NCBI GenBank assembly: GCA_017431955.1
Contig: JAFRKC010000003.1
Span: 3,299 to 67,298, forward strand
Direction: 5' to 3'
Length of the DNA: 64,000 nucleotides
From: Candidatus Saccharimonadota bacterium
GTDB taxonomy: Bacteria > Patescibacteriota > Saccharimonadia > Saccharimonadales > Saccharimonadaceae
The first letter of the stretch is position 1. The number at the start of each line of letters is the position of its first letter. A program made the position numbers and the translations under genes. The notes below the pieces were generated by a model. That model saw only the letters and a program-made list of their open reading frames with translations, had not been told where the DNA came from and did not search any database. Positions 11,723 through 54,970 of this stretch are shown in pieces.

Positions 11723-11742
11723 CTCGCCCAAGCTTATGGTCC
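11723..11742 (+). repeat. Right-half copy of the palindromic repeat family
   Basis: CTCGCCCAAGCTTATGGTCC matches the 3' half of the core at 18317, 38844 and 54919. Confidence 0.75.
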
Positions 11743-11771
11743 AAGAAAGAGCTTATTTATTTTTAGTGTGA

Positions 11772-12536
11772 TTATAATACGCCTAAAATGCCCCTTAAAG
11801 CGAAGGCGGTATCTTCGTGAGAGCGGACGGTGATGGTGTCAATACCCATCTGGACAACAGGGTAATCATTGCCGCCAGGCTGAGTCATATCGCCAAAATA
11901 AAGAATATCTTCTTTTTCGACTTTTAGCTCTTCTAGGAGATGAGTCATGCCAAAGACTTTGTTCATGCCTGGAGTGACGGCGTTAATAGAGGTAGTGCCA
12001 CCAATTTCGTAATCAAATTCAGGGGCGAGCTCTTTACAGCGAGCCACGATTTTTTCGCGCTTTTTGCAATCTGGATCCCAAGCGTATTTTTCCTCGGTGC
12101 CAGCTTTTTGGCCAAGGGCGGAGAAAGTAACCTGAGAAAGGCGGTTTTCGATGATTTCATCGCCTGGCTTTAGCTTATCTTCTTCCCAAAACCCAAGCTC
12201 TTTGGCGGACTTTTCGATAGTTTCGGTGATTTTTTTGACCTGCTCGTCGGTTAGAGGATAGTTATAAACCTGGTCCCAATCCTTTTTTTCGACATTATAG
12301 CGATAATACTGGGTGCCCTGAGCGACAAATAGATGAAGATGGGTGAGTTGCTCTGGGGTGGCGCCTTTTAATCTATCCACAATTTGGACCAAGAATTGAT
12401 CGAATTTTTGGCCAGAAATTGGACAAATCTCAAAATGATCGAGACATTTAGTTAATAAATCAGCAATTTCATCTGGAATCGGCATTTTCGCCACATTAAG
12501 TGTCTGATCAACGTCAAACGCAAGAACTTTTTTCAT
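11772..12536 (-). CDS. HAD-IIB family hydrolase, eukaryotic-type phosphomannomutase-like
   Basis: LAFDVDQTL, CPISG, IENRLSQVTFSALG, IGGTTSINAV, YFGDMTQPGGNDYP. Confidence 0.88.
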   Translation of the reverse strand: MKKVLAFDVDQTLNVAKMPIPDEIADLLTKCLDHFEICPISGQKFDQFLVQIVDRLKGATPEQLTHLHLFVAQGTQYYRYNVEKKDWDQVYNYPLTDEQVKKITETIEKSAKELGFWEEDKLKPGDEIIENRLSQVTFSALGQKAGTEEKYAWDPDCKKREKIVARCKELAPEFDYEIGGTTSINAVTPGMNKVFGMTHLLEELKVEKEDILYFGDMTQPGGNDYPVVQMGIDTITVRSHEDTAFALRGILGVL

Positions 12537-12587
12537 AAAACCTCCATTTATCTTTTAATTATACATTTAAAACTGATTTTTGGACAG

Positions 12588-12612
12588 AAAAAAGCCCCGA
12601 TATTATCGGGGC
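12588..12612 (-). terminator. Intrinsic terminator
   Basis: GCCCCGA-tatta-TCGGGGC with A6 on the left (U-tract on minus). Confidence 0.7.
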
Positions 12613-12643
12613 AAAGGGTGGACGGTTCCCTAATTTACGAAAC

Positions 12644-13159
12644 TTAGTTACTCATGATTTCGATCAGCTTAAAGGCCCATTTACGGAAGTCTGGGTCTTC
12701 GTCGCTGGGGATTTGTTTGCGGATATAGCTGAAGTACTCGCTATCCGAAATCTTTTTCTGGAGGTTTCTATACCAAATTTCGGTATAGAGACTCCGCGAG
12801 ATTTCGGGAGCAAACGGACGACTCGAGTCGACGCTGAGTTGGAAAAGGTGGATGATGTCTGCTTCAGAAAAATCGGTCCAGTCGCGGCCATCATCGTCTT
12901 CGAGAGTGGTGGCGTTGGCCAGCCTGATATGGAGACTGCGTTTTGAATAATCGCCATTAGGATATGCTGGCAGAGAAGATGTCAAAATATCTTTTAAAAT
13001 GCTGTTCGGGATGTCTTCACCCTGTCTACGGATAATTTCCGCGAGCAAGGCTTTTCTGTCCTCGTCATTTTTGATTTTGACGTTCTCTATTCGCCGATGC
13101 GAGCGAACAAGCTCGATGATTTCCTCTGTAGAGAGGAGCTTCAGATCACTTTTTTTCAT
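12644..13159 (-). CDS. Hypothetical protein (orphan, monocistronic)
   Basis: 171-aa ORF; SD AAGGAG; promoter TTGACA-N17-TAATAT upstream; own terminator. Confidence 0.7.
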   Translation of the reverse strand: MKKSDLKLLSTEEIIELVRSHRRIENVKIKNDEDRKALLAEIIRRQGEDIPNSILKDILTSSLPAYPNGDYSKRSLHIRLANATTLEDDDGRDWTDFSEADIIHLFQLSVDSSRPFAPEISRSLYTEIWYRNLQKKISDSEYFSYIRKQIPSDEDPDFRKWAFKLIEIMSN

Positions 13160-13295
13160 CTATCTCCTTAATCAGCATACAAATGTCGAGGCTTCCGTCC
13201 AAACCTCTGCGGATTCCCGCGTGCTGATTTTTGCAAATGGAAAGGAACACCCTACTTAGGGAATAAGTCTATATTATCACGTTTTTGGTTTTTTG

Positions 13296-16200
13296 TCAAT
13301 GGTCTTCTCTGTTGTAGAACTCTGCCCTGAGTTTGAGCTGGCGGCGATGCTCTTCGATAACGTAGAAGAGGATGGTGACGATGACGCCGATAAGGATTGG
13401 CAAAATCGTGGTGATAACGAGAATTATGATGCTGGAATAATTAGGATCTTCTAGATTGGATTTGATAACGCCGAGCGGATCTAGATTTTCGTTTTGTAGC
13501 TCGTCTTGATCTGCTGAATCATCTGTGGATGAATTGGTAGACGGTGATGAAAAACTGTTTTGGAGCGATTGTGAACTGTTTTGCGACTGGGCTGGGGCGA
13601 CTTCGAAGTAACCCATAACGCCATTTTTATCGCCGACATGAGCATGGGCAATATCTTCGCCAGTAGTACCATTAACATAATTTGGGAGATTAGTACAGCT
13701 GAACATAGACGTTGAGCGCGTAATGGAACCTGTGCTCCAATCGCTATTGTCAAATCCCGTTTCAGAATCGATACTATCAGTGACATAAACGTGGGAAAGA
13801 TTGGTGGCACAAATAAACATATTGAAAGTGTTGGTGGTTTTTCTAGCAAATCCAGCTGGAAAAGTAAGAGTAGTAAGAGAGGACGTTTGGCAAGACGACT
13901 GGCCGCTGGTATGGTAGTTAAACATTGAAGACATATCGGTAGCCTCACTGCCGAAGCCAGCAGGAAATGCGAGTGATGTGAGAGAAGAAGTGTCAGCGAA
14001 CATAGCACCCATATCGGTAGCCTCACTGCCGAAGCCAGCAGGAAATGCGAATGATGTGAGAGAAGAAGCGCCAGCGAACATATAGGACATGTTCTTTGCA
14101 TGCGTGCCAAAGTTAGCCGGGAAAGAAAGCGATGTGAGAGAAGAAGTGTCAGCGAACATCATGCTCATATTTGTATCCTCTTCATCGCCAAAGTTATCTG
14201 GAAAAGAAAGGGTGGTGAGAGAAGAAGCGCCAGCGAACATAATAGATAAATTCTTTGCTTTATCGCCAAAGCCAGTTTGAAAAGTGATTGAAGTGAGATT
14301 ATAAGCCTGATAAAACATTTTGCTCATGCTCTCTGCTTCTTTGCCAAAATCAGCTGGGAATGAAAGCGACGTGAGGGGATGAATACGAACAAACATGCTT
14401 TCTACTTCTGTGGCATTACTACCAAATCCATCTGGGAAAGAATAACTCCCTGGAGAAGTAATGGATGATATAGAGGCGTCGGCAAACATTTCGCTCATAT
14501 ATTTTGTACTCTTACCGAAATTATTCTGAAAGACAAGGGCATCCAGAGAAACTCCATAGAACATCCGTATCATATTCTCTGCGTTTTTGCCAAAGTCTGC
14601 CGGGAAAGAGAGTGTAGTGCTAGGAGAAACAAAACCAGAGAACATTTCATCCATGTCTTGGAACTCTTCCATATGCACTTGACTACCGAAATCGACTGGG
14701 AAGGAATAACTACTGCCAGGAGATGAAATAGATGATATCTGAGCATTTTTAAACATTCCGGACATAGTTTTAGCTTTACTACCGAATTCTGCTGGAAGAC
14801 TAAGCGATGAGATGGTGGAGTTCGCGAACATGACCGCCATAGATAGTGCATCTTTTCCAAACCCGGCCGGGAAGGAAAGTGAGGATATTTGAGCATGAAT
14901 AAACATTTCACTCATGTAAATAGCCTTAATGCCAAAATTCGCTGGGAATGCAGGTGAGTTAAGGCGAGAGTGCGCAAACATACTTTGCATTTGGGTGGCA
15001 TTACTGCCAAAGTCAGCCGGAAAAGTGAGGGAGGCGAGAGCAGTAGTCTTATAGAACATAAATCGCATGTCGTCCGCATATTTACCAAAGTTGTTTGGAA
15101 GAGAAAGCGAGGAAAGAGATGTAGCCTCTCGGAACATGGAGTTCATGTCCGCATATTCTTCATCCCCAAAGCCGGTAGGAAGAGAAAGTGAGGAAAGAGA
15201 TGTGGCTTTGTAGAACATACCGTTTAGGTTTTTTGCTTTATCCCCAAAGCCGGCAGGAAGAGAAAGCGAGGAAAGAGATGTAGCCTCTTGGAACATGGAG
15301 TTCATAGATATTGTTTCTGAGGTGTTAAGGTTACTTAGATTATTCACCGCAGTGAGGCTAGAAAGTCCGTAAAACCAATAGCTTGTGCTCTTTGGTTTAG
15401 CCGTCGCGAAGGAACTGTCAAAATTTACAGTTTGAATTTCTTCCTTTTGTTTCCAAGGGGAATTGCTTGTATACGTGCCGCCGATAAGGCTGACTGGGTA
15501 CACATTCGTCACCGTGATGGTGTTGTCGCCGGTGGCGGCGCGGCGGGCGGTTTCGTAGTCGGACTTGTAGCCGTCGACGTCGTCAGTGACATTAGATACC
15601 GTGCAGTAGTCGTAGACGAAGTTAAGGAGGCCACTAGAGTCGAGAATAGCCTTGGCGGATTTGGAAGTGTTTCGCCAAATGGCGTAAAGTTTGACCTTAG
15701 GGCTGGACACGGTGATGGTTTGGCCAGGTGCAAAAATTGGTTCACGGCCATCAGTGAAGAAACTGTAGCCTAGGAAGTTACAGTCGCCATCGCCGGTGAT
15801 AGTGTCTGGTATTTGGATCTCTATTTCGTAGTCACCATCATCGTCTGTTCCATGCTCATCTCCAGGGATATTTTCTGGATCTGTTTCCCCGCTTGGGTCT
15901 TCAAACTCTACGTCGGTTTCGTCAAAATCAGCAACACAACCGTTTGGTGCTGGCCTGAGACCGTTAACAAAATCGTCGGTAGTGGTGGCTGGAGGATAGA
16001 AAATGTCTAGATTAGTGTAGTCGTTGGTTTTGGCAGGGTGCCAGCCGGTAGGGCAAGAGACAGCTGGGTTTTCTGGATCGGATGGATTTTCTTCTGGGAC
16101 TGGGTTGGTCCAACAGTTGCCATCTTTGAGCTTTCGAACTTCTTGTTTTTGGCCGAGCGCATTCGTGAATTCGTATGAGCCGCCTTCAGTAAGGGTTTCG

Positions 16201-17258
16201 CAGATTTCCGCGGTCATCTCGTCAACCGAAACGTCTACGTCTTGGCCGCCAACAACCTCATATTCGATGTTGATTTTATACGAGCCTTCGGCCGCGGTTT
16301 TGGCACGAACGCCATACCAAATAGTGACCTGTTTTTCGGCGGTAGTTTCCGCTTCGGAGTATGATTTGACGCTGATTCTATCTTGCTTTGATGATAGCGG
16401 CATAAATTTGGTGGCGTCTTGTGCTGGGTCTACCAGAGAAAAGCCCCAAGTGTTGTCGGTAAGCGCACCTGTGCTGGAGATGGTATTGATGCCGGTAGAA
16501 TCTTCGGAGCCATCAAGAATAAGTTTAGTGTTGGCATCTTGGCTAGAAATAAACAATTCATAGCCGTAGTCTGATGCCGGGATAGTGATAACGTCTTGGA
16601 TGTAGGCTGGGGTGTCTGTGCCGATAATGTCCGCATTGATGCTGATGGTGCCTAGAGTTGAGGTGTCTATGCTGACGTTATTTTGGAATTGGGTATAGCT
16701 CAGCACGGTTGAAATGGCGCCAAAGAGCAACGCAAATGAAGCCACCGCTGTAGAAATAGCTTGGAATCTGGTGAATCTGGCGTGGCTGAGACCATAGCGG
16801 AAATAGTCGCGCTTTTTGGCTTTTTTGATAATTGCAGGAAGCAAGAAAGCGAAGAAAATAGAGGCAAAAACTACGAAAGCAACTGGGATAACGTGGCTAA
16901 TTATGATTTGCGCTTGCTGCTGCTGGATATCGGAAGCGGATTGAACTTCGGTATAAAAACCAGTGTTGGCGGAGCCTAGACCGGAGCCACCCTCTGGGCC
17001 TTTGTCGGTACCAGGAACTGGCGGTTTTTCTTCTTCGGTCTTATCTCCCTCGTCACCAGGATTTTGCCCTCCATCGTCGCCTTGATGTTCGCCGTCGCTA
17101 GGGTTGTCGCCACCTCCTGGGGGATTGTCACCACCAGGTGGGTTATCATCAGGCGGGTTGTCGCCGCCTGGAGGATCGTCACCACCAGGTGGGTTATCAT
17201 CAGGCGGATTTGAATCCACCCACTCGCTAAGGTTGAAAATCAAATTAGTAGTCGACAT
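13296..17258 (-). CDS. Large surface protein: N-terminal GGDNPP repeats, 2 TM, CPR Ig-like domain, degenerate FISUMP, B-repeat, DUF285/BspA-type ~26-aa repeats, C-terminal TM
   Basis: LSNLNTSETISMNSMF and repeated FPxxFGxxAxxMxxMFxxxSSLTSL; KLKDGNCW...CPTGW; promoter TTGACC-N17-TATAAT. Confidence 0.85.
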   Translation of the reverse strand: MSTTNLIFNLSEWVDSNPPDDNPPGGDDPPGGDNPPDDNPPGGDNPPGGGDNPSDGEHQGDDGGQNPGDEGDKTEEEKPPVPGTDKGPEGGSGLGSANTGFYTEVQSASDIQQQQAQIIISHVIPVAFVVFASIFFAFLLPAIIKKAKKRDYFRYGLSHARFTRFQAISTAVASFALLFGAISTVLSYTQFQNNVSIDTSTLGTISINADIIGTDTPAYIQDVITIPASDYGYELFISSQDANTKLILDGSEDSTGINTISSTGALTDNTWGFSLVDPAQDATKFMPLSSKQDRISVKSYSEAETTAEKQVTIWYGVRAKTAAEGSYKINIEYEVVGGQDVDVSVDEMTAEICETLTEGGSYEFTNALGQKQEVRKLKDGNCWTNPVPEENPSDPENPAVSCPTGWHPAKTNDYTNLDIFYPPATTTDDFVNGLRPAPNGCVADFDETDVEFEDPSGETDPENIPGDEHGTDDDGDYEIEIQIPDTITGDGDCNFLGYSFFTDGREPIFAPGQTITVSSPKVKLYAIWRNTSKSAKAILDSSGLLNFVYDYCTVSNVTDDVDGYKSDYETARRAATGDNTITVTNVYPVSLIGGTYTSNSPWKQKEEIQTVNFDSSFATAKPKSTSYWFYGLSSLTAVNNLSNLNTSETISMNSMFQEATSLSSLSLPAGFGDKAKNLNGMFYKATSLSSLSLPTGFGDEEYADMNSMFREATSLSSLSLPNNFGKYADDMRFMFYKTTALASLTFPADFGSNATQMQSMFAHSRLNSPAFPANFGIKAIYMSEMFIHAQISSLSFPAGFGKDALSMAVMFANSTISSLSLPAEFGSKAKTMSGMFKNAQISSISSPGSSYSFPVDFGSQVHMEEFQDMDEMFSGFVSPSTTLSFPADFGKNAENMIRMFYGVSLDALVFQNNFGKSTKYMSEMFADASISSITSPGSYSFPDGFGSNATEVESMFVRIHPLTSLSFPADFGKEAESMSKMFYQAYNLTSITFQTGFGDKAKNLSIMFAGASSLTTLSFPDNFGDEEDTNMSMMFADTSSLTSLSFPANFGTHAKNMSYMFAGASSLTSFAFPAGFGSEATDMGAMFADTSSLTSLAFPAGFGSEATDMSSMFNYHTSGQSSCQTSSLTTLTFPAGFARKTTNTFNMFICATNLSHVYVTDSIDSETGFDNSDWSTGSITRSTSMFSCTNLPNYVNGTTGEDIAHAHVGDKNGVMGYFEVAPAQSQNSSQSLQNSFSSPSTNSSTDDSADQDELQNENLDPLGVIKSNLEDPNYSSIIILVITTILPILIGVIVTILFYVIEEHRRQLKLRAEFYNREDH

Positions 17259-17340
17259 TTTTTATATGACCTATTTACATTTCTGATTATGTTTTATTAT
17301 AGATAGTTTTTATGGTTTGGTCAAGAAAAGCTCAAAAAAG

Positions 17341-17359
17341 TGTTGTAATATTTACAACA
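17341..17359. promoter_or_regulatory. Palindrome TGTTGTA-N5-TACAACA (candidate operator; may double as tyrS terminator)
   Basis: 16 bp upstream of the -35 of the 1320-aa gene; same palindrome at 21901-21919. Confidence 0.5.
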
Positions 17360-17381
17360 CTTTTCTATTTGTGGTTGGTGA

Positions 17382-37945: not shown

Positions 37946-37952
37946 TAAGGTT

Positions 37953-38564
37953 ATGCTAATAAATGGGTCTAAGTTAAACAGCGCCAAGGTGCTGAGTTTG
38001 CATGTTGGCGGAACGATTGCATCGGTTAAAAGGGCGGTGATAGACCCAAATAGTTTGAAAATTATTGCTTTTGAAGTGAGCGGGCCTCTGATCCGCGGCG
38101 ACGTAGGAAATATTTTGGACGTAACCGACATCCGCGAGGTGGCGAATATCGGAATGATTATTGACTCGACCGACGATTTAATGCAGCCGGACGACGTCAT
38201 AAGAATCAGCAAAATTATGGAGCTGGGATTTAATTTGATTGGGCTGAAGGTTCGCACCAAAAAGGGAGAGAAGCTCGGCAAAGTAATGGATTATGTGCTG
38301 GACACCGAAACTTTTACGATTCATCAGCTGATTGTGCATCGCCCGGCAGCAAAGGCGCTGCTTGACCCGGAGCTAACTATTCCACGTAGTGAAATTGTGG
38401 AAATTAACGATTACGAAGTAATTGTAAAAGACGAGAAAAAGACCGTCAAAAAGAAGGCTAGCGTACCGGCAAAAGATTTTGTGCCTAATTTTGTGAATCC
38501 GTTTCGAGAACCAACTTTTTCGACAATGCGTAATCGAACCCCTGGCGAACGAGATACTGAATAA
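37953..38564 (+). CDS. Tandem PRC-barrel domain protein
   Basis: VLSLHVGGTIASV...IDPNSLKIIAFEV; LIGLKVRTKKGEKLGKVMDYVLD. Confidence 0.85.
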   Translation: MLINGSKLNSAKVLSLHVGGTIASVKRAVIDPNSLKIIAFEVSGPLIRGDVGNILDVTDIREVANIGMIIDSTDDLMQPDDVIRISKIMELGFNLIGLKVRTKKGEKLGKVMDYVLDTETFTIHQLIVHRPAAKALLDPELTIPRSEIVEINDYEVIVKDEKKTVKKKASVPAKDFVPNFVNPFREPTFSTMRNRTPGERDTE

Positions 38565-39333
38565 GTTTATCATCATCATATCTAGCACGTTTTTTGGCGA
38601 TGATTTTTTGGATTTCTTCTTCGTCATTTCTGGCGGTGGATTCTAGTGTATCGTCGATGATGGATTTATCTACGCCTTTCTTGATAAGCTCCATTCTTAG
38701 CCTCTTTTGGCTGATTCCCTTTTTGACGAAGCGGTTTTCGACATAATATTCTGCGAATTTTTGATCGTCTAAGTAGCCCTTTTCCACTAGGCGCGAAATA
38801 ACTTCTTGAATAATATCCTCGCCAAAACTAGAAGATTCTTTCTCGGACACGCTCAAGGGCGCTCGTCCGGGCTTATGGTCCGAGAAAGAACTTCTTGTTT
38901 TGGTCCGATCATCATCGGCCAAGCTTATGGTCCTCAAAGAAGCTTGTGATTTCGGATTTTGCCCAGGCTTATGGTCCGAGGAGGAACTTATAGCCCTTTT
39001 TACAGACTTCCTATATAAGTAGTCCTTGGTTTCGCGGACTGAGTGGGGGCGGGTAAGGACCCACTCGAGGGTTCTTTGATAGAGCTTGCCAAATTCGGAA
39101 GCTTTTTTATATTCGGCGAGTTTCTCGGGTGTAAGGGTTTGGCCTTTTTTCAGACCAAAATCTACCACCTGTGCAATGTCTAAAGAAAAGCTATATTTGC
39201 CGTCGACAAAAACATTCACCCGGTTTGGATTTTTAACGGCTTGTTTAATGTCTGAAACTAAGAAAGAATTGGCTGCGCTACCAGCACTTGTGGTTATATT
39301 ATCACACTTATGCTTATTTGTCAAGATTTCCAT
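38485..39333 (-). CDS. recX: Regulatory protein RecX (with repeat-derived insertion)
   Basis: VSDIKQAVKNPNRVNVFVDGKYSFSL, RPHSVRET, LVEKGYLDDQKFA, LRMELIKKGV, LIQYLVRQGF; downstream of recA. Confidence 0.9.
   Translation of the reverse strand: MEILTNKHKCDNITTSAGSAANSFLVSDIKQAVKNPNRVNVFVDGKYSFSLDIAQVVDFGLKKGQTLTPEKLAEYKKASEFGKLYQRTLEWVLTRPHSVRETKDYLYRKSVKRAISSSSDHKPGQNPKSQASLRTISLADDDRTKTRSSFSDHKPGRAPLSVSEKESSSFGEDIIQEVISRLVEKGYLDDQKFAEYYVENRFVKKGISQKRLRMELIKKGVDKSIIDDTLESTARNDEEEIQKIIAKKRARYDDDKLIQYLVRQGFDYALSKKLVLETDSQN
38830..38987 (+). repeat. One full plus two half copies of the palindromic repeat, in frame within recX
   Basis: Core 38844-38882 with arms AGAAGATTCTTTCT/AGAAAGAACTTCT; half copies 38915-38933 and 38961-38980. 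Confidence 0.85.
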
Positions 39334-39880
39334 CGGTGGGGAGCTTCTTTTCAAGGTATTGGAAGAATGTTTCGGAAGTGGTGCTGTCTTTGGCGAGCGG
39401 AGCTTTGCCGTATTTTTTGCGGAAATAATCGTAATCTTCTAGCGGGACCCATTTAACTTCGTCGACTTCGCCATCAGAAAAAGTGAAGTTTTGTTTGTGG
39501 TCGGTATAGTCTGCAACGAAGATAGAGTAGATGCCGATATCGCCCTTAAAACTTACTACAAATTCTAGGTTTTCTTTCCCTAGGTCGTGCACGCCGATTT
39601 CTTCTTTTAGCTCACGGATGCCGGCTTCAGCGAAAGTTTCACCGTAATTAACGTGGCCGCCAACTGAACAATCCCATTTACCTGGATAGCGATCAACTTT
39701 TTCACTACGCTTTTGGAATAGAATTTCAAAGTTGCCGTTATTTACACGATACAGCCAGACAATTGACCCGCCATAGTAATCTCGACCCTCGGCGTGGTTG
39801 CCAAGGTGAGATGGGCGGCCGCCATTTGCTAGCGGCTCGCCGTTTTTACCGTATTCTTGCCAAACCTCTTCGCGGTGCAT
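39314..39880 (-). CDS. NUDIX hydrolase (IPP isomerase-like)
   Basis: LFQKRS...YPGKWD.SVGGH...GETFAEAGIRELKEEIG Nudix box. Confidence 0.9.
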   Translation of the reverse strand: MHREEVWQEYGKNGEPLANGGRPSHLGNHAEGRDYYGGSIVWLYRVNNGNFEILFQKRSEKVDRYPGKWDCSVGGHVNYGETFAEAGIRELKEEIGVHDLGKENLEFVVSFKGDIGIYSIFVADYTDHKQNFTFSDGEVDEVKWVPLEDYDYFRKKYGKAPLAKDSTTSETFFQYLEKKLPTDGNLDK

Positions 39881-41011: not shown

Positions 41012-41027
41012 AAAAGGAACAGTATTT

Positions 41028-47000: not shown

Positions 47001-48053
47001 GTCAAAGCTGAACATTTGGAAGTAAATGATGGCGAATTGACGATATCTCCTATTTACCCGATGGAAGCAGCCCTAGAAATCACTGGCACTGCCGAATTTA
47101 ATGGTGGCACAACGACAATTTCTGGAGGCAGAACTCCTATAATGGTAGAGCCAGAAGGAGAGATCGATGGCCCATTAGTCTCATTTAATGGTGGTGATGT
47201 GACTATCAAAGTACTGAAAGACACCGATGCGGTACTTAGCTATATCGTAGATTCTCAAATAGAAATGTTTAGGCCTGAAATAGAAGAGGAAATGCATATT
47301 CAAGAGCAGAAGGATGCTGTTGCCGCCATGAGTGACGAAGAAATTAGCCAGGGCTGTAGCGCTAGCCTTAGTGATATAAATGAGATGCGCACTGCGGTCG
47401 GGATGGACCCATACGAAAACGCCGATGAGTGCGCAGCAAACTTAAAAGCCGATTATCCAGCAATGATGGATGGTATGTTAGAGGCTCAGCTTGAATATTA
47501 TCGCCAAATGCTAGAACAAGAAGTCGAAAACATGAGGCCACAAATTGAATCAATGATGGCGCAGGTTACTCCTGCACCAATAGCTATTCTTGCGGATGAT
47601 GAATCCGCAATTAGTATTGCTGAATATATGGAAAGAGATGCCTTTGATACCATAGATGGTGAAAGTGAGAGAAAACCACTGACGGTTGCAAAGGGGAGCA
47701 TGAGAATGGGTGGTCAAAGTATGGCGTTTATTACGTTTAGTAATGGTGATGGTGATCCTTCTATTGACGCAGTATTCGATGAGGATACTGGAGAATTTGC
47801 TGGTTACAATGCAACCAATATCCCACTAATGGCGCATATCTACGCAAAAGAAACTCCGCCAGTGCCAGACACTGATCCGGATGATGCCGGTGATGAAGAG
47901 AGCGACGATGAGAGCAATCCAGGTGCCAGCGATACTGGGCTCCCTCAATTTGATTCTTCAGCGGTAATTGGTAGTTCCCTGATTAGTGTTGCAGTGATGG
48001 GTATAGCCGGAATCATGCTTATCGTTTATCGAAGAAATCGCCAAAGTAAATAA
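44058..48053 (+). CDS. Giant surface protein (propeller-like N-terminus, B-repeats, beta-helix-like GG repeats, PGASDTG-TM-basic tail)
   Basis: 1331 aa; signal peptide; QDGGYFVTG; GYTFDGWY...LYGRY; YNPSTNTLALNNY; repeated xIxGGx; C-terminal TM plus RRNRQSK. Confidence 0.8.
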   Translation: MKKYLKRCAAMLLLVALAGVGVFAILSKDASADNEVTLLWTQPNDANDPLSNTTGIFKAQDGGYFVTGQDSSNVAMVVKLDANGNKLWSAKSSDASSMYTSVVETSASEFVAVGYSTDGEAYAILNKFQISNNTAVMTEELSYDVGDNLETTFGTILIDDDDNFVIAGASQNSNGNNRVVFVMKLARNHSCTVDANNSSNRTFCDEDVVYKVEGSSTKGWGAYIYWTITKMVKLNDDTYLIPTGSTSSRDNGLIKVEESNNSEARIVFEGGGMNQTSTAGSMSVASAADGEYMLAKRLLGGYMPITVYSEMTNGDNHFLWINGGIWGDFMSTAQPRYVVDQINYASYYQSIGIIPTNDGEYLVYGGITDTNATYSNSTLTKVNGATYEVIWETTGDIGIKNEGNYLFIGVVADGNGIYTAVDNKGVVRQYQDNTSYHHISYHIVGNSPFGEDYDNTSSYCHQKVRTSAAAGTTFGELENYSECMQTIYSSNYTALDSANYIAGYTFDGWYTDDTFTTKFTEENIIADRDINLYGRYTKKSYEIPFYIATYDSADSDPEYTLISTQTASVGDAIEFPSNVTPEGDGWEEPDGWYGVVIDGDSKTINTAIKTDENQNPILASANIMLKEKAKINPDALVGQEGGGTPIQEHYYDGLVMKFVRQTNTVSYNFTGNGCYPSGNYIRSGTETVAYGGTFDVGPVITEDKQCYLTNLQSSTDGTNWIGFNPATPITEDTQVKGEWMQNYLVVKDDELQYADGTAFNTSDAGGIEYNPSTNTLALNNYVSEIGSSYCASGAYEVEFSCFLPVKIENGDDPVTVIFNGVNNDLSKGGLHSTSPLILDGDGELSTLNSYTRDITSTSSIVIEGGKYYCYEMVAVGNLIVNGGEYDCSRTVVEPNNNGVANLVIKDGDFDSSYISMNGSENNFTVDDGHVELEEIRLEGEGDNKDLNVLVEDGEVFITGVEDTLRTKNFIIDGGEVYAMGYVKAEHLEVNDGELTISPIYPMEAALEITGTAEFNGGTTTISGGRTPIMVEPEGEIDGPLVSFNGGDVTIKVLKDTDAVLSYIVDSQIEMFRPEIEEEMHIQEQKDAVAAMSDEEISQGCSASLSDINEMRTAVGMDPYENADECAANLKADYPAMMDGMLEAQLEYYRQMLEQEVENMRPQIESMMAQVTPAPIAILADDESAISIAEYMERDAFDTIDGESERKPLTVAKGSMRMGGQSMAFITFSNGDGDPSIDAVFDEDTGEFAGYNATNIPLMAHIYAKETPPVPDTDPDDAGDEESDDESNPGASDTGLPQFDSSAVIGSSLISVAVMGIAGIMLIVYRRNRQSK

Positions 48054-48150
48054 GCTTGCTATTTTAGCCATAGTATGTAACAATACCTGCACGAGCTGGT
48101 AGGGGCTTTGTACTTTGATCGCTAAGACACATCACTTGCGGGGAGGTTTG

Positions 48151-48456
48151 ATGATGCAAAAACATTTTGCACTAGGCAAAGTTAATGATAGTCTTGTGTT
48201 TGTAGTTATAGATACTGAGGCCAATGTTGTAAAATTCAAAACCCGTGGACGCAGAATCGTGTTCGAAGATATCTTCGGAAACGACAACATCTTTAGTGAA
48301 TTGATAAACTGCTGCTATGGGTTGGGCGACGGCTCGGAATGCCACATTGGGCTTCACGATCATATCGAATACTACCACACTATCGAAATTCCAATCATTG
48401 CGAATTTGATTCAAGAACACTATGATCAGATTCTTAAAGAAGAAGGCTGGTCGTAA
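48151..48456 (+). CDS. Small hypothetical protein
   Basis: GGAGG SD before ATGATG; terminator AGGCGACT...AGTCGCCT at 48461-48483. Confidence 0.6.
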   Translation: MMQKHFALGKVNDSLVFVVIDTEANVVKFKTRGRRIVFEDIFGNDNIFSELINCCYGLGDGSECHIGLHDHIEYYHTIEIPIIANLIQEHYDQILKEEGWS

Positions 48457-48509
48457 GTTTAGGCGACTCCTACCAAGTCGCCTATTTTCATGGTATAATA
48501 TATATATTC

Positions 48510-48584
48510 GGGGCAGTCGTTCAACGGATAGGACATATCCCCTCTAAGGATACAATGCTGGTTCGATTCCAACCTGCCCTACCA
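48510..48584 (+). tRNA. tRNA-Arg(TCT)
   Basis: GGGGCAG/CTGCCCT acceptor, TATCC-CCTCTAA-GGATA anticodon arm, CCA. Confidence 0.93.
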
Positions 48585-48598
48585 AATTTAAATTGAAT

Positions 48599-49252
48599 AT
48601 GATTATAGGTATTTTAGATTCTGGAATTGGTGGAAAAACCGTTCTAAAAGAAATTAAAAAACTTCTTCCAGACGAAGAATTTGTTTACTTTGCAGATTAT
48701 GAAAATTGTCCTTATGGCACTAAATCGTTAGATGAGCTGAAAAAAATTGTGTCTAGTGGTGTTGAGTATTTATTATCTAAGGGTGCAAAAATTATTGTGC
48801 TGGCTTGTAATACCGCCACCACGCAAACAGTAAATTTTTTGCGAGAAAGATATCCTACGGTGCCGTTTGTGGGGACAGAACCAGCGATTAAAAAAGCCTG
48901 CAGCGAAAGTTCTGACGCAGCTAAAATCCTGTTGCTTGTTACAGAGGGCACAGCGCGAGCAGAAAGAACACGTGAGCTAATTGATTCAAATAAAAAACCA
49001 GAACAAAAAGTAGAAGTTGTGGCCTGTCCGGGGCTAGCGAAAGCGATTGAGGATGGAGATGATGCAAAGATCGAGGTGGTGCTTTCGGAAATTGAAATTG
49101 CCGAAAAGTTTGAAACCGTAGTTCTTGGCTGTACTCATTATCCAATTATCCGCGACAAAATTCAGCGAAAGTTCCCTGCCGCAAAATTAATTGACGGTAG
49201 CGAGGGTGTGGCGAAAGAAGTCTTGCGTGTTTATCAAGAAATTAATTCTTAG
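48599..49252 (+). CDS. murI: Glutamate racemase
   Basis: IGILDSGIGG, YFADYENCPYG, IVLACNTAT, GTEPAIK, VVLGCTHYP, LIDGS. Confidence 0.96.
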   Translation: MIIGILDSGIGGKTVLKEIKKLLPDEEFVYFADYENCPYGTKSLDELKKIVSSGVEYLLSKGAKIIVLACNTATTQTVNFLRERYPTVPFVGTEPAIKKACSESSDAAKILLLVTEGTARAERTRELIDSNKKPEQKVEVVACPGLAKAIEDGDDAKIEVVLSEIEIAEKFETVVLGCTHYPIIRDKIQRKFPAAKLIDGSEGVAKEVLRVYQEINS

Positions 49253-50018
49253 GTTTTTCGAGCTGATAATAAATTGATGGGGCAAAGCGAACTGGTGCGA
49301 GTGTTACCTGGGCGCTTTTTTCTAGCCTAACAAGAACTTTGGTGCCAAAAATTTTTTTAAGTTTAGTGCTGCGGAAGTTGGAAACGGAACGTACTTTTTT
49401 GATTTTGAAACCAGATTTTTTGAAAACTTCTTCGATGTATTTTGGATGATAGTTGTAAAAACCATCTTTGTTTAAATCTTTAAGATGGGATGGTTTGCGA
49501 TCGAAAGGATTAACGTCGGATTTTTTAAACCAATATCTAAACATCTTTGGCAAAGTCTTTTTGTTGGCAACTTCAATCACGGCAATGCCGCCAGGTGCAA
49601 GCACGCGATAAAGTTCGTTTGAGACTTTTTGCATTTCTTTGAAATGATGGGTGGCACGGACCATAAGGAGCGAATCGAATTCGTTGTCTTTGAATGGAAG
49701 CGCGTAAATATCACCGGCCTTGGTGTTAATTTTGTCGCCATATTTATCTTTGGCTTGTTTTAACTCGGTTTTGGAATAATCAAAAATGGTGGATTTTTTG
49801 GCGCGATGAATGTATTCGTCGGCTAAGCGGCCATAGCCACCAGCGATGTCGACAAAGTTTTCCATTTTTTCTGGCAAAAGTTTGCGAATAGCAATGCGGT
49901 CTGCCATGTCTTCGTATTTGCGATCAGCATCTTCCCAAAAAATCTTTTTATAATCGTAGCCATTGTAATCAGAAATTACTTTTTCTGATTTTTGTTTAGT
50001 ATTCTTTGCAGTTGTCAT
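49242..50018 (-). CDS. Class I SAM-dependent methyltransferase
   Basis: FVDIAGGYGRL, IFDYS, GDIYALPFKDNEFD, LYRVLAPGG. Confidence 0.9.
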   Translation of the reverse strand: MTTAKNTKQKSEKVISDYNGYDYKKIFWEDADRKYEDMADRIAIRKLLPEKMENFVDIAGGYGRLADEYIHRAKKSTIFDYSKTELKQAKDKYGDKINTKAGDIYALPFKDNEFDSLLMVRATHHFKEMQKVSNELYRVLAPGGIAVIEVANKKTLPKMFRYWFKKSDVNPFDRKPSHLKDLNKDGFYNYHPKYIEEVFKKSGFKIKKVRSVSNFRSTKLKKIFGTKVLVRLEKSAQVTLAPVRFAPSIYYQLEKPKN

Positions 50019-50026
50019 AGAATATA

Positions 50027-51634
50027 TTATATCACGCGGGATACTTCTTCGAGAGAAGTTTCACCACTGATCGCAGCAAGTAGGCCTTTTTGCGTGAGAG
50101 TGAGCATGCCGTTTTTCTTGGCGGCTTTTTCAATGGCTTCGGTGTGAATATCTTCGATATCACCACGGATAAATGATTGAATGTCTTCGGTAACAACTAG
50201 TTGCTCCATAATGACCGTACGGCCTTTATAGCCAAATGGATTATCCTCAGTTGGAACTGGGCGGTAAAGTACCAGATTGTCCCAATCGATTCCCTCGACG
50301 CCATCGAGCTCTTTTCTGAGATAATTCATGGTGGCTTCATCTGGAGCGTAGGCTTCTTTGGAATCGGAGAGTTTGCGCACGAGACGCTGAGCAATGATGA
50401 GACGAATTGAGCTGGCAAAAATTGGATTCGTGCCGATAAGGTCAATCATGCGAGAAAAGGCCGCGGAGGTAGAATTGGCGTGGAATGAGCTAAGCACTAG
50501 ATGTCCAGTGATAGAAGCCTGGATGGCGGTTTTGGCAGTATCGGCATCGCGAATCTCGCCGACCATCACGACATCTGGGTCGAGACGAAGCACGGATCTT
50601 AAGCCCTCGGCAAAAGAACCACCGCTGTTGGTATTGATTGGAATTTGCGAGATGCCCGTAATGCCGTATTCGATTGGATCCTCTAGAGTGATGATTTTTC
50701 TTTCGGTAGTGTTTAAAGCGTTGATAATGGAATAAAGCGTGGTGGATTTACCAGAACCGGTAGGGCCAACCATCAAAACGAGCCCGCGTGGATGCGAAAT
50801 GATTTCGGAAATTTCTTTCATTTCCTTTTCTTTAAGGCCAAGGAGATCAAGTTTTAATAATGTTTCGTCGAAGTTAAAAAGGCGAAGCACGGCGTCTTGG
50901 CCATACATGGTCGGAATAGTTTCTACACGGATATTTAGAAGATGCGTAGCGCCATTGCGATGAATTTCGGTTTGCATGTGGCCGGATTGCGGTTTGTTGG
51001 ATGCGGTAGAGACATTAGCACGAGATGAAAGCTCGCCCATAAAGACACGGTAGTGGTTTTTGTCGATGTTGGCCACTGGGTGGAGAATACCATCGACACG
51101 CATACGAATGCGAATCTCGTTTCTGAGATTTTCGATATGAATATCTGATGCACCGAGTTTGTCGGCTTGGTCTAAAAGAAAATCAAATACTTTTTCGGTA
51201 GAAACAGAATTAAGGGTGTTGCTAACCGAAGCGATGGTTTCGGAATCACCTTCGTCGCTGATTTTGATGTCGTCATAATGTACGGTTTTTGGTGGGTCAT
51301 AACGCAACATAAAAACTTGATAAGCAGAGTGGGAAATTAGGAAAAAGTCGATGCGTTCGCCCTTATCGGAATACTCCTGGCGCATGTTGTCTATAACAGA
51401 ACGTGGAGTTTGACTGGTGACCATAAATTGATAATGGTCTTCGCCGCCACCGTCTTGTAAAGGAATGATATAGTTTTGATGCATCTCAGAGATATCAAGT
51501 AGACCCCTGGTGAGATCGATGTTATTTTCGAATTCACGGGTGTCTAGATACGGAAAGCCCAAGATTCTGGCACGCCTTTCGGTGGCCTGTTCTTCATTAT
51601 CTCTGCGTTTGCGCTGAACTTCCTGTTCGTCCAT
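50027..51634 (-). CDS. GspE/PulE/PilB-family secretion/pilus assembly ATPase
   Basis: ASDIHIE, IRMRVDGIL, GPTGSGKSTTLY, ITLEDPIEY, LRLDPDVVMVGEIRD, TGHLVLSSFHAN. Confidence 0.95.
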   Translation of the reverse strand: MDEQEVQRKRRDNEEQATERRARILGFPYLDTREFENNIDLTRGLLDISEMHQNYIIPLQDGGGEDHYQFMVTSQTPRSVIDNMRQEYSDKGERIDFFLISHSAYQVFMLRYDPPKTVHYDDIKISDEGDSETIASVSNTLNSVSTEKVFDFLLDQADKLGASDIHIENLRNEIRIRMRVDGILHPVANIDKNHYRVFMGELSSRANVSTASNKPQSGHMQTEIHRNGATHLLNIRVETIPTMYGQDAVLRLFNFDETLLKLDLLGLKEKEMKEISEIISHPRGLVLMVGPTGSGKSTTLYSIINALNTTERKIITLEDPIEYGITGISQIPINTNSGGSFAEGLRSVLRLDPDVVMVGEIRDADTAKTAIQASITGHLVLSSFHANSTSAAFSRMIDLIGTNPIFASSIRLIIAQRLVRKLSDSKEAYAPDEATMNYLRKELDGVEGIDWDNLVLYRPVPTEDNPFGYKGRTVIMEQLVVTEDIQSFIRGDIEDIHTEAIEKAAKKNGMLTLTQKGLLAAISGETSLEEVSRVI

Positions 51635-51671
51635 GGTATTATTATAACACCATAACGCTTATGTTTATAGG

Positions 51672-52370
51672 CTACTCGGCAAGTTTTTCGTCGATTTTCT
51701 TACGCATGAAGTCTAGGAAGCTAACCTGAGAACTATTGTCGTACCAATCTAGCATTTCACCATCCATATAGAAGGCTGGGGTGGCAGTGATCTCTACTTT
51801 TTGGGCTAAAGCAACATCAAAGTCGATTTTTGCGGATACTGCGTCGCTGATCATGTCTGTTTTGAATTTTTCTAGATCGCCTTTGCCGTCGGTGACTTCA
51901 TTGAAATATTTGACGAAATAGTTCCCTCTTTCGGATGCGCTGGCATATTCCCATTCTGATTGGTTAGAAAAGAGGAAATCGGCGTATTTCTTCCAATATC
52001 CTTGCAAGCCAGCTGCTTCGGCGGCAGCGGCGGCGGCATGAGCGTTGGCGTGGTAACTCAAAAGAAAGCTGCGGTAGACGATACCGATTTTATCGCCGTA
52101 TTCTTCTACGAGCTTGTTTACCCATGGGTTAACCGAAGCACAGCCTGGACACTGGTAGTCGGCATATTCGTAAATGATAACCTTGGCATCTTTGTTGCCT
52201 TTGACGTGGTCGGCAATGCCGCCATTGGCGTCGTTTGGTTCCATGATGGAATACTCGTCATAGTTAGTAAAATCTGTTGCATTTTCTTTTTTCTCGGCAG
52301 TAGTCCAAATAGCAAAGACCACAAATGCTGCGACAATCACACCGATGATAATACCTGTAACTCTATTCAT
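51672..52370 (-). CDS. DsbA-like thioredoxin-fold membrane-anchored oxidoreductase
   Basis: YADYQCPGC, AAAAAEAAGLQG.YW, TATPAFY; start MNRVTG at 52370. Confidence 0.9.
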   Translation of the reverse strand: MNRVTGIIIGVIVAAFVVFAIWTTAEKKENATDFTNYDEYSIMEPNDANGGIADHVKGNKDAKVIIYEYADYQCPGCASVNPWVNKLVEEYGDKIGIVYRSFLLSYHANAHAAAAAAEAAGLQGYWKKYADFLFSNQSEWEYASASERGNYFVKYFNEVTDGKGDLEKFKTDMISDAVSAKIDFDVALAQKVEITATPAFYMDGEMLDWYDNSSQVSFLDFMRKKIDEKLAE

Positions 52371-52389
52371 GCTATAATTATAGCATGAA
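52366..52389. promoter_or_regulatory. Perfect 24-bp palindrome acting as a bidirectional leaderless promoter
   Basis: TTCATGCTATAATTATAGCATGAA; TGcTATAAT-N6-ATG on both strands. Confidence 0.8.
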
Positions 52390-53017
52390 ACCAACTCTGA
52401 ACAAGATGATAAAACGCTTTGTAAAGTGGGTTGATCCTAAGCTCGAAAAGTATCGTAAAAAAGAAAGCGCCAAGCCTTACACTCCGAAAGATTTAGAGGA
52501 TTTGCTAGGAATTTTAAAAAGAACCCCAAAGGATGTTTTAACTTCTAAACAGCGCAGAATAATTTCTAATGTGATGTCTTTTGATGCGCGAAAAGTAAAA
52601 GAAATAATGATAAAAAAAGATGAGATTGTTTTTGTGCACGACCACGACATGCTTGGCCCGTTGATGTTGGACCGTTTGTATCGTTCTGGGCACTCACATT
52701 TTCCGGTACTCGATAAAACTAAGGATGTGGTAGGGATTTTGCATACTGATTCTTTTAATAGTTTGGAAAATAAAAATACCGATCGCGTAGAAAAATATTT
52801 GGACAGAAACGTTTATTACGTAAATGAAAATTATTCGCTTGAGCAGGCCCTAGCGGCATTTGTAAGAACAAATTGTTATTTCTTTATTGTGATAAATAAA
52901 TTTGAAGAAATCACGGGGCTTCTGCCGTTTGAGGCGTTGATTGAATATTTGCTAGGCAATATGCCAGACGATAGTTTCGCACAAGACACTGATAAACGCA
53001 TGGTAGCAAAGCGATAA
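52385..53017 (+). CDS. CBS-domain protein (CorC/HlyC-like CBS pair)
   Basis: KVKEIMIKK, SGHSHFPV...VVGILH, ALAAF...FFIVINKFEEITGLL. Confidence 0.85.
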   Translation: MKPTLNKMIKRFVKWVDPKLEKYRKKESAKPYTPKDLEDLLGILKRTPKDVLTSKQRRIISNVMSFDARKVKEIMIKKDEIVFVHDHDMLGPLMLDRLYRSGHSHFPVLDKTKDVVGILHTDSFNSLENKNTDRVEKYLDRNVYYVNENYSLEQALAAFVRTNCYFFIVINKFEEITGLLPFEALIEYLLGNMPDDSFAQDTDKRMVAKR

Positions 53018-53042
53018 AAAAGAATCCCCTTTCAGGGATTCT
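53016..53042. terminator. Terminator between the convergent CBS gene and the 27-aa ORF
   Basis: AGAATCCC-ctttca-GGGATTCT with A6 on the left. Confidence 0.7.
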
Positions 53043-53059
53043 AACGCATTTTTATCATC

Positions 53060-53143
53060 TTAGATTTCGATGAACTCTTGCCAGGCGGCAGGAGGAATTT
53101 GCGACTTTTTGCGTGTGTGAGAGCGCTTAAGCCTGATACGCAT
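53060..53143 (-). CDS. Small basic protein, 27 aa (MRIRLKRSHTRKKSQIPPAAWQEFIEI)
   Basis: Below the ORF-track cutoff; AAGGAG 8 nt before ATG, TTGCCA-N17-TATTAT promoter, terminator downstream. Confidence 0.6.
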   Translation of the reverse strand: MRIRLKRSHTRKKSQIPPAAWQEFIEI

Positions 53144-53229
53144 TAAATAACAACTCCTTTATTTGTTTATCGCTTTACGACAAAAGCGACGATTCCTATA
53201 ATAGCAAAAAATTTTTGATATGGCAAATT

Positions 53230-54858
53230 TTATTTAAGATTTCTGAAAACAATCTTTTTGACTTTTTCGACAAATGGACGAACTTCGGAAAGTTTAAGTA
53301 TGTAGCTGAAAATTAGATAGGTCAATGTGCTAACTGCTGTAATAATACAGAACTTCGGGAAGGTTGAAAGGAAGGAATTATCAGTGGCACGGAGTGGAAG
53401 AAGCTTGGTCATTAAATAAGCAACTACGCCAGTAACGGCCGTGGTTATGAGCATGCGGAATAAACCAATCCAAAAGCTTCTGTTTAAAACTTTGCCTTTT
53501 GATTGGAATTGCAAAATAGCGAGCAAGATGATGATTTCTAGAACTGCGCCGATAGACTGGGCCCAACCTAGGCCAGTGACGCCGAGATTCATGTTGTAGA
53601 ACAAAACTGAAAGAGCAATGGTCGCGCCGATGGAAAAGATAGAAACGATGAGCGGAGTTTTGGTGTTTTGTTTGGCATAAAATCCGCGAGTAGCAATATG
53701 GAAAATTGAGTGAGCAAAAATTGCAACAATCAAAGTGCCAAGAATGTCAGCAATGCGGCGATCACCACCGTTTTTAATGAAGTTAACGACATAACCACGA
53801 CCAAAGTAGGCAATGGTTACTACTGGCAAAGTAATCCACGTGATGGTTCTGAGTGCAGTGCGGAAAGTATCATAGAATTTTTCGTCATCTCCGCTGCCGG
53901 TTTCTTCGGTCATTTTTGGGAAGAAAGCGGTAGAAATAGCAACGCCGATGAGGCTAACTGGCATTTGATGCAAACTTGATGCTTGCTGGAAAGACCTCAA
54001 AGCGCCGGTGCCCATTCTAGAAGATAGGTTAGTGCTAACAAGGCCGTTGACGTAATCGATTCCCTGGTCGAGCGAGCGGGCTGGGAGAAGTTTTAACACG
54101 GATCTAAAGCCTTGGTTTTTCCAATTAATTTTGAAATCGTAATCAAAACCTAAACCAAACAAACCAATCAGGCTGATAATCAATTGCAGAACGGCGCCAA
54201 ATACTACACCAAGAGCAACGCCCATGATCCCACCTTCAAAGAGTTGCAAACCAAAAATATTGATGCCGCCAGTAAATACTGTGATACCAACTAGAATGCC
54301 GATATTGTAAAGTGCTGGAGCGAGCGCATAAAATACAAAACGCCCAACGGCTTGTTGAATGGAGCATAAAATAGTGGAGATAGAAAACAGGAACGGGTTA
54401 ATAGCAATCACGCGCATCATGTTGATGGCGAGAATAGTACCAGATTCGTCGAGACCTGGGCTAACCACATAACGCACGAGTGGATCGGCAAAAATCATAA
54501 TCAAAACCGAAGCAACTAAAGTGACCATAGCCATTAGATTTAAAATTCCAGAAGAAAGTTCCCAGGCGGATTTTTTGTTGCCAGTGATAAGGCGTTGGTT
54601 AAAAACCGGAATAAACGAAACGGCGAGGGCGCCAGATGTGAGAATGAAAAACATGAAATCTGGAATGGTGAAGGCGGCAGTATAGGCATCAATGCCGGCT
54701 GGATAAGTATCTAAATAGTAAGAGTTTAAAAGACGGTCGCGGAAGATGCCAAGAAGCGCAGAAGCAAGAGTGGAGCTAGCAAGAATAATGGCGGCGGATT
54801 TGATAGAAAGTTTGGAGTTTACGAGAGTAACAACCGATTTAAACTTGAAATGCTTCAT
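53230..54858 (-). CDS. murJ: Lipid II flippase MurJ (MviN)
   Basis: LGIFRDRLL, AAFTIPDF, GALAVSFIPVF, PVSLIGVAISTAFFP, FYAKQNTKTP; multi-TM. Confidence 0.95.
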   Translation of the reverse strand: MKHFKFKSVVTLVNSKLSIKSAAIILASSTLASALLGIFRDRLLNSYYLDTYPAGIDAYTAAFTIPDFMFFILTSGALAVSFIPVFNQRLITGNKKSAWELSSGILNLMAMVTLVASVLIMIFADPLVRYVVSPGLDESGTILAINMMRVIAINPFLFSISTILCSIQQAVGRFVFYALAPALYNIGILVGITVFTGGINIFGLQLFEGGIMGVALGVVFGAVLQLIISLIGLFGLGFDYDFKINWKNQGFRSVLKLLPARSLDQGIDYVNGLVSTNLSSRMGTGALRSFQQASSLHQMPVSLIGVAISTAFFPKMTEETGSGDDEKFYDTFRTALRTITWITLPVVTIAYFGRGYVVNFIKNGGDRRIADILGTLIVAIFAHSIFHIATRGFYAKQNTKTPLIVSIFSIGATIALSVLFYNMNLGVTGLGWAQSIGAVLEIIILLAILQFQSKGKVLNRSFWIGLFRMLITTAVTGVVAYLMTKLLPLRATDNSFLSTFPKFCIITAVSTLTYLIFSYILKLSEVRPFVEKVKKIVFRNLK

Positions 54859-54905
54859 TACTTAATTATACCATAGACCACCTGTCTAAAATATTATAAA
54901 GTAAT

Positions 54906-54970
54906 CAAAAAACTATCTGGGACACGCTTGAGGCCGCTCGGCCAAGCTTATGGTACCAGATAGTATTTTG
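54906..54970 (+). repeat. Intergenic full copy of the palindromic repeat (between ftsH and murJ)
   Basis: Core GGGACACGCTTGAGGCCGCTCGGCCAAGCTTATGGTACC (54919-54957); arms CAAAAAACTATCTGG/CCAGATAGTATTTTG (14/15 paired). Confidence 0.85.

Follow-up and report, generated by a model that had tools for sequence, protein, structure and literature searches.

Core-conserved hairpin elements: probable selfish palindromic repeats within and between genes of one Saccharibacteria genus, and in Bifidobacterium

The closest analogue in behavior of the repeats described here appears to be the Rickettsia palindromic element (RPE), which was reportedly described by Ogata et al. in 2000. We have analyzed a repeat family found in a 64,000-nucleotide stretch of DNA from a Candidatus Saccharimonadota bacterium (the whole stretch is termed the window; assembly GCA_017431955.1, contig JAFRKC010000003.1). 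Like RPE, this family consists of short hairpin-forming repeats in a reduced genome that are present in non-coding DNA and in frame in essential genes, are read in more than one frame or orientation and seem to be accommodated as surface loops. Such dispersed hairpin repeats lie in frame in genes, including essential ones, at 42 of 94 Saccharibacteria copies, and this in-frame insertion bears out the parallel with RPE that an earlier note on this DNA had drawn. The two families also differ in that RPE measure approximately 100-150 nt while the repeats in this study measure 65-90 nt, have a conserved apical center with arms that are free in sequence, are shared across two phyla, exhibit a strong orientation bias relative to GC skew and apparently invert in place. 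To our knowledge, no transposase is known for RPE or for the present family. We also know of no sequence relation between them, and homology would not be expected of such unrelated taxa; the likeness is one of behavior and not of compared consensus sequences. We have named these repeats core-conserved hairpin elements and consider that they probably constitute a family of small, non-autonomous, selfish palindromic DNA elements.

The window corresponds to C2:3299-67298 of a 713-kb genome (G000; seven contigs, 42% GC) that was searched with nhmmer, blastn and a covariance model (CM). The copies in the window and the open reading frames (ORFs) that host them are as follows.

18291-18380, minus strand: full element in tyrS, a 90-nt palindrome with arms of about 26 nt that contain a few mismatches; core 18318-18354; CM hit (R1) of 87.2 bits.
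17382-18710, minus strand: tyrS host ORF, a 442-aa tyrosyl-tRNA synthetase in which the core is read forwards as SSSDTLEGARPSLRSSEED.
38828-38899, plus strand: full element in recX; core 38845-38881; R1 hit of 81.8 bits.
38485-39354, minus strand: recX host ORF, a 289-aa RecX in which the reverse complement of the core is read as SDHKPGRAPLSVSEKE.
54903-54974, plus strand: intergenic full element; core 54920-54956; R1 hit of 83.5 bits; fold of -31.1 kcal/mol, z = -6.6.
11717-11742, plus strand: decayed intergenic half copy, CTCGCCCAAGCTTATGGTCC followed by the arm-like tail AAGAAAGAGCTT; nhmmer E = 0.0076; blastn 19/20.
38915-38933, plus strand: half copy in recX, the core 3' half CGGCCAAGCTTATGGTCC followed by an arm-like tail; nhmmer E = 0.13; blastn 17/17.
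38961-38977, plus strand: second half copy in recX, GCCCAGGCTTATGGTCC; nhmmer E = 1.5; blastn 12/12.

A 37-nt core written in IUPAC code matches the window three times, at 18318-18354 (minus), 38845-38881 (plus) and 54920-54956 (plus), with 0, 0 and 1 mismatches, respectively, as compared to no match in 100 dinucleotide shuffles of the window (0 expected vs 3 real). These are the three full copies, in tyrS, in recX and between genes, that the earlier note had reported, and their orientations are confirmed. The similarity of the recX and intergenic cores to that of tyrS also holds, with the identities of 33/39 and 32/39 given there becoming 32/37 for both upon direct comparison, and the arms that it had put at 11-15 bp are longer, as seen in the tyrS palindrome. 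Translated in frame, the 90 nt of the tyrS palindrome read TEAAESSSSDTLEGARPSLRSSEEDSSSSS, and the full recX element translated from the opposite strand reads KTRSSFSDHKPGRAPLSVSEKESSS. The intergenic element sits in a 120-nt spacer between a murJ-like ORF (53230-54858, minus) and an ftsH ORF (54979-57126, minus). It comes 5 nt after the stop codon of ftsH and before the murJ-like gene, is bordered by an A-run and a T-rich tail, and has arms in common with a copy elsewhere in the genome (C1:34722). The half copies noted earlier near 11723, 38915 and 38961 were recovered as well. Each is weak taken singly, but the three are real and all have the same core 3' half followed by an arm-like tail. 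No long frame crosses 11717-11742, which is thus intergenic; the peptide segment matching 38915-38933 occurs also in the RecX homologues P0122 and P0126; and 38961-38977 codes for SSSDHKPGQ on the recX gene strand. In total, the G000 genome yields eight CM hits (five clean copies, two diverged and one weak), with those beyond the window located at C4:127992, C1:34722, C6:50279 and C4:114505 and the weak one at C4:22237. The covariance-model scan of the genome and its relatives that had been proposed therefore did uncover further copies, both in G000 and in genomes of the same genus.

Every full copy folds into a single long hairpin, for which z-scores relative to shuffled sequences lie between -3.6 and -8.1. 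The apical core is 35-37 nt in length, GC-rich and near-invariant (GGACAC-GCUC-RA-GGSC-GYUC-GSCC-AAGC-UUAYG-GUCC), and folds from base to tip as a GGAC/GUCC helix, a 2x5 internal loop, a GCU/AGC helix, a two-purine bulge, a GGSC/GSCC helix in which a compensated C-G to G-C swap is observed, and a GYUC tetraloop. Outside the core are arms of 12-26 bp that vary in sequence from copy to copy and retain complementarity, giving an element of approximately 65-90 nt in Saccharibacteria and a very uniform length, usually 87 nt with 26-bp arms, in Bifidobacterium. In a CM alignment of 105 copies, canonical pairs occupy 92.3% of pair cells, 14 of 17 arm pairs have changed in both partners and most arm positions include examples of all four Watson-Crick pair types. 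None of 500 shuffles attained the observed covariation score (0.626, as compared to 0.137 in shuffles), and pairing falls to 45-53% when partner columns are slid by one. The earlier observation that arms differ between copies while staying self-complementary is thus upheld across the family. Gathering thresholds of Rfam families were not reached by the element in the window (where only tRNAs scored), by Bifidobacterium copies or by copies with a long core, and permissive thresholds gave only sub-threshold, generic microRNA-precursor-like hairpins for the latter two sets. Topic and sequence-string searches of the literature found no description of the element, in agreement with the view of the earlier note that the family is undescribed.

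Several variants of this anatomy were also observed. Three long-core copies (L211, L212 and L215) have about 30 extra nucleotides that replace the tetraloop and share a CGCGTCCCAAGGGGCG segment, and three others (L213, L214 and L216) have different GC-rich cores on similar AT-rich arms; neither group has an Rfam match. These long-core and other-core variants suggest that the element family may belong to a wider superfamily.

What is gained upon insertion is best seen at tyrS. The nearest tyrosyl-tRNA synthetase (TyrRS) in a collection of 5.8 billion proteins, P0002, is 92% identical over the aligned part and 30 aa shorter, lacking exactly TEAAESSSSDTLEGARPSLRSSEEDSSSSS. These 30 aa equal 90 nt, which is the complete palindrome at 18291-18380, so that the arms are neither a pre-existing hairpin nor a duplicated target. 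Additionally, copies at unrelated loci with flank identities of about 0.47-0.5 have arms in common with identities of 0.77-0.96 (L064/L116, L122/L125 and L110/L086), which shows that the complete hairpin moves as a unit. The arms are thus part of the mobile unit and not made from the target. An alternative model, in which the core alone is mobile and the arms are hairpins that already existed (such as terminators) and received the core in their loop, or are inverted target duplications, does draw on the fact that arms seem unrelated between many copies that have nearly identical cores. It is contradicted by the 92%-identical homologue that has neither arm, by the arms common to unrelated loci, by the fixed 87-nt length of the Bifidobacterium elements and by stepwise compensated arm changes in orthologous copies. 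We therefore regard this model as largely refuted and very improbable.

Most tyrS genes of the same genus have no insert at the loop used in G000. At this same TyrRS loop, one relative (L023, tyrS of G021) carries a different GC-rich palindromic insert (..SLGPRPAGPSPWVAGASPRAAALRIPSSKP..) and several other TyrRS orthologues carry short variable inserts; the loop is an insertion hotspot. At the G000 insert position the tyrS of G042 (L022) has a short perfect palindrome, CCGAGGA-A-TCCTCGG, followed by GATACTGAT, which could be a decayed or partly deleted copy. On either side of tyrS in the window are two very large ORFs, both on the minus strand (13296-17258, 1320 aa; 18718-21786, 1022 aa), with N- and C-terminal hydrophobic segments and many tandem repeats of approximately 25 aa (FG..A..M..MF......L.SL.FP); they probably encode surface proteins.

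The recX insertion is old. RecX homologues with identities down to 76% share it, and more distant ones (P0132, P0181 and P0199) do not have it. In one RecX homologue the insertion is inverted (P0129 as compared to P0121), and the tyrS gene of a relative (L210) has the same arms around an inverted element. Flipped copies at these two loci suggest in-place inversion of the element, which inverted repeats can undergo.

The 42 in-frame copies represent 45% of those in Saccharibacteria, with a copy counted as in frame when its frame is open for at least 50 codons on either side, or for at least 15 where it runs off the end of the locus. They comprise 24 sense and 18 antisense copies, many in housekeeping genes, in accordance with the earlier reading that the element is translated in both orientations. 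Coding copies use four of the six frames and add approximately 21-31 aa. Predicted insert-encoded peptides include SDTLKGARPSLRSS, EDHKLGRAPLSVSE and LGHTQGRSAELMVL, and four peptides are recurrent: S-DTLKGARPSLRSS, LGHTQGRSAELMVL, THSRPFGQAYGP and, in antisense, EDHKLGRAPLSVSE. Ten hosts were checked against Pfam; these are LepA, a class-I tRNA synthetase, LeuRS, topoisomerase I (TopA), NAD-dependent DNA ligase (LigA), a UvrD/AddA-like helicase-nuclease, ArgRS, PriA, Der/EngA and MnmA. At most of the sites the G000 orthologues of coding-copy hosts do not have the 21-31 aa, which indicates that presence/absence polymorphism is general, and the inserts would appear to be tolerated surface loops. 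The part in driving protein innovation that the earlier note had proposed for the element is thus conjectural. An intron or translational bypass was ruled out since all 42 coding copies are open and in frame. The count of coding versus intergenic copies that the earlier note had proposed leaves 52 non-coding copies, many of which start 0-15 nt past the stop codon of a long ORF in very short spacers. Among orthologous copies, identity is highest in the core (0.85-1.0), intermediate in the coding flanks (0.7-0.83) and lowest in the arms (0.54-0.8), and differences in one arm are mirrored on the partner arm (L156/L128, and C4:128009 of G000 itself with L017).

Some of these features could be expected if the hairpin were mainly a cis element useful to the host, such as a terminator, a 3'-end stabilizer or a site for a protein that binds RNA or single-stranded DNA, with the core maintained by host-level selection and with spread and coding copies as side effects. 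The greater conservation of the core than of coding flanks at orthologous sites and the frequent location of non-coding copies 0-15 nt past stop codons both favor this explanation. In a complete Bifidobacterium adolescentis-like genome, one copy (L187) is located between two convergent genes with a T-run after it, and the RNA-seq contigs of each gene enter or end at the hairpin; convergent pairs are frequent among Bifidobacterium copies. The window element at 54903-54974 has a similar terminator-like layout of a hairpin followed by a T-rich tail. On the other hand, essential genes contain 45% of Saccharibacteria copies, inserted either way round, and a terminator there would do harm. About 40% of congeners and half of Bifidobacterium species do not have the element. 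Orientation also tracks GC skew, as described below, and not the direction of transcription. Enrichment of T-tracts was not detectable, with T-runs no more frequent at non-coding than at coding copies, in a test that relied on unreliable hairpin boundaries based on minimum free energy. We therefore think it unlikely that host benefit is the principal explanation. A terminator-like side role is plausible for some copies and cannot explain those inside essential genes.

The distribution of the element is narrow in one phylum and broad in another. In a set of 40 relatives, it is present in 15 of 25 genomes of the same genus (1-23 copies each) and in none of 16 from other genera of the order, and in a class-wide sample only 13 of 301 genomes are positive, all from one genus out of 160. 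The same covariance model detects the element in 76 of 151 Bifidobacterium species, with at least 35 copies in B. callitrichos, at least 32 in B. rousetti and at least 16 in B. goeldii, frequently arranged as convergent pairs at distances of 120-200 nt. Between the two phyla the core hardly differs. When 185,579 species genomes were scanned with the core pattern, the matches listed included Ca. Nanosyncoccus and Ca. Saccharibacteria metagenome-assembled genomes from gut, rumen and oral samples along with many cultured Bifidobacterium species. A search of a plasmid collection gave no match. That the element is shared by Bifidobacterium and a single Saccharibacteria genus points to DNA exchange having occurred between two distant phyla. 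Since the core has a GC content of about 62%, which is like that of Bifidobacterium and unlike the 42% of G000, and since the element is widespread in Bifidobacterium, this genus is likely the reservoir.

This same GC content would be expected if the Saccharibacteria bins were contaminated with Bifidobacterium DNA, which together with chance resemblance is the artefact that must be considered. However, Saccharibacteria copies have AT-rich arms and lie in frame within Saccharibacteria genes, Bifidobacterium copies come from cultured isolates and shuffled sequences gave no match at all. Several copies are on contigs labelled Bulleidia sp., Clostridiales bacterium or simply bacterium (L059, L095, L052, L069, L080, L092 and L119), and the proteins of these contigs are 60-90% identical to those of G000. 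They are thus Saccharibacteria contigs that were probably mis-binned or mislabelled. We regard the artefact explanations as refuted, with a probability close to negligible. An artefact involving a restriction-site polylinker was also rejected, since the XhoI and HindIII sites vary between copies.

Three further observations concern individual data sets. The first is a multi-copy gene family with internal AAATCCACTAGCATT-type repeats in G009 (L190-L206) that carries the element in a region where the assembly is fragmented; in these copies the GGAC/GTCC helix is swapped for GGAG/CUCC-like pairs. The 23 copies of G009 resemble a burst of transposition, an explanation that was dismissed since they occur in a duplicated gene family with shared long flanks. 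The second is a single match in a phage collection (L209; MT837054.1, "UNVERIFIED: Bacteriophage sp."), an unannotated 9-kb record with 56% GC from human faeces that contains a typical Bifidobacterium-type copy (26-bp arms, then TCGTTTTT) near one end and may be a phage or a chromosomal fragment. The third comes from three metagenome runs (X2, X4 and X5) compared with window positions 17950-18750. Contig word depth jumps more than 10-fold exactly over the core at 18328-18354 and contigs break there, which indicates that the core is abundant in these gut communities and fragments short-read assemblies.

The orientation of the element is related to GC skew in Saccharibacteria. G000 has an exceptionally marked skew that extends over whole contigs, with values of +0.1 to +0.33 for C2-C5, close to -0.24 for C6 and slightly negative for C1 and C7. 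This skew is independent of local gene orientation, with most long ORFs of C2 and C4 on the C-rich strand. The GGACAC...GGTCC strand of the element is the G-rich strand in 82 of 93 Saccharibacteria copies (88%; binomial p = 1e-14), and this relation holds whichever strand the host gene uses. In both phyla the complementary strand folds better by approximately 4.5 kcal/mol. Moreover, arm mismatches are more often G.T wobbles on the complementary strand than the converse, at 53 vs 24 in Saccharibacteria (p = 0.001) and 23 vs 12 in Bifidobacterium. We infer that selection or a mechanism acts in a replication-linked manner on the single-stranded hairpin.

Palindromic repeats, convergent doublets in Bifidobacterium and a bias for replication strand all recall the biology of REP/RAYT and IS200/IS605 systems. 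The copies could accordingly derive from a known mobile system of larger size, as its ends, its targets or its by-products, be it REP/REPIN elements with a RAYT, palindrome-associated transposable elements (PATEs) derived from IS200/IS605, targets of IS110-type elements or a MITE of an insertion sequence. The Bifidobacterium elements, which have G-rich 5' arms, also exhibit a conserved junction (..C|G...C|TCC) with no direct repeat or target duplication evident among 31 aligned copies. The RAYT or IS200/605 transposase that the earlier note had suggested looking for was, however, not found. The Y1/HUH family (PF01797, Y1_Tnp; RAYT, IS200/IS605) has no match in G000 or in ten high-copy genomes (five Bifidobacterium and five Saccharibacteria) while control genomes score, a result that leaves other transposase families untested. 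None of the copies examined is flanked by a larger element or has a parent insertion sequence beside it, and the conserved part is the center and not the termini. We consider this explanation improbable.

Comparison with each of these systems is instructive. As with REP/REPIN sequences, the elements are short imperfect palindromes, mostly just downstream of genes, with inverted doublets common in Bifidobacterium, and single-strand hairpin biology is plausible for both. Unlike these sequences, they have no Y1/HUH (RAYT) gene in any of the 11 genomes tested, number tens and not hundreds of copies per genome and are intragenic at nearly half of the Saccharibacteria copies. Similarity to MITE and Correia (NEMIS) elements lies in their small, non-autonomous, inverted-repeat nature, in presence/absence polymorphism and in the possibility that some gene-end copies may affect transcripts. 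In contrast to these, the termini are not the conserved part, with arm ends only weakly conserved, a single hairpin is the complete unit, no target-site duplication was seen at the Bifidobacterium junctions and no parent insertion sequence was found. With IS200/IS605 PATEs the elements have in common hairpin dependence, the lack of an obvious target duplication and a replication-strand-linked orientation. They differ from PATEs in the absence of TnpA (PF01797), in having one central hairpin instead of separate left-end and right-end hairpins and in presenting the better-folding strand in the nascent-lagging orientation instead of on the lagging-strand template. By the defining features that were tested, the elements do not qualify as REP/RAYT, PATE or MITE family members.

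For core-conserved hairpin elements as selfish DNA, the reading that we favor, insertion or retention would act on a single-stranded DNA hairpin at the replication fork, with the favored hairpin formed by the strand complementary to GGACAC...GGTCC in the nascent-lagging-strand orientation. The arms may stay complementary because the hairpin is selected for or because quasi-palindromes are corrected by template switching, and horizontal transfer would have carried the element between Bifidobacterium and one gut/rumen Saccharibacteria genus.

Several observations weigh against this reading. Conservation of the core in place, above that of the coding flanks, is unexpected of a purely selfish, decaying insert and hints at a host-level function or gene conversion. 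Bifidobacterium copies exhibit no orientation bias (23 vs 27), the strand asymmetry in arms is only about 2:1 and the fixed core contributes part of the difference in folding. No mobilizing enzyme was identified, with only the Y1/HUH family tested, and the 23 copies in G009 did not arise by transposition. No transposition event was caught at the DNA level between near-identical strains, which leaves the exact ends, the target site and any target duplication undefined; metagenome contigs compared with tyrS revealed no same-strain empty allele, and the strain with the P0002 allele is not among the 369 same-genus genomes searched. This empty tyrS allele is known only as a protein.

Even with these reservations, we found in the literature searched no earlier account of an RPE-like element from the Candidate Phyla Radiation, of which this one is apparently the first. 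Its presence in genes for tRNA synthetases, ligase, topoisomerase and recombination shows that selfish DNA is tolerated there even by genomes of 0.7 Mb. For annotation purposes, the element accounts for odd Ser/Glu-rich inserts in conserved proteins and for breaks in metagenome assemblies at the core. The usual logic of transposons is reversed, in that the center is invariant while the arms, free in sequence, remain paired; copies also invert in place and are oriented according to the replication strand. Together with the lack of a known transposase, this architecture, flipping and strand orientation point to an undescribed way to move or maintain hairpin DNA. The presence of the same core in Bifidobacterium and a single Saccharibacteria genus is a signal of cross-phylum transfer that could help assign hosts of gut/rumen Saccharibacteria. 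Known hosts of cultured Saccharibacteria come from the phylum to which Bifidobacterium belongs. A more speculative possibility, which we hold to be something of a long shot, is that of a transposase-free hairpin parasite that passes by DNA uptake between a Bifidobacterium host and its epibiont, the gut/rumen Saccharibacteria genus, and that enters the nascent lagging strand in the form of a single-stranded hairpin. If true, a conserved protein of replication or repair would recognize the invariant core, and the shared presence of the element would provide the first genomic marker to identify Bifidobacterium as host of this uncultured Saccharibacteria genus.

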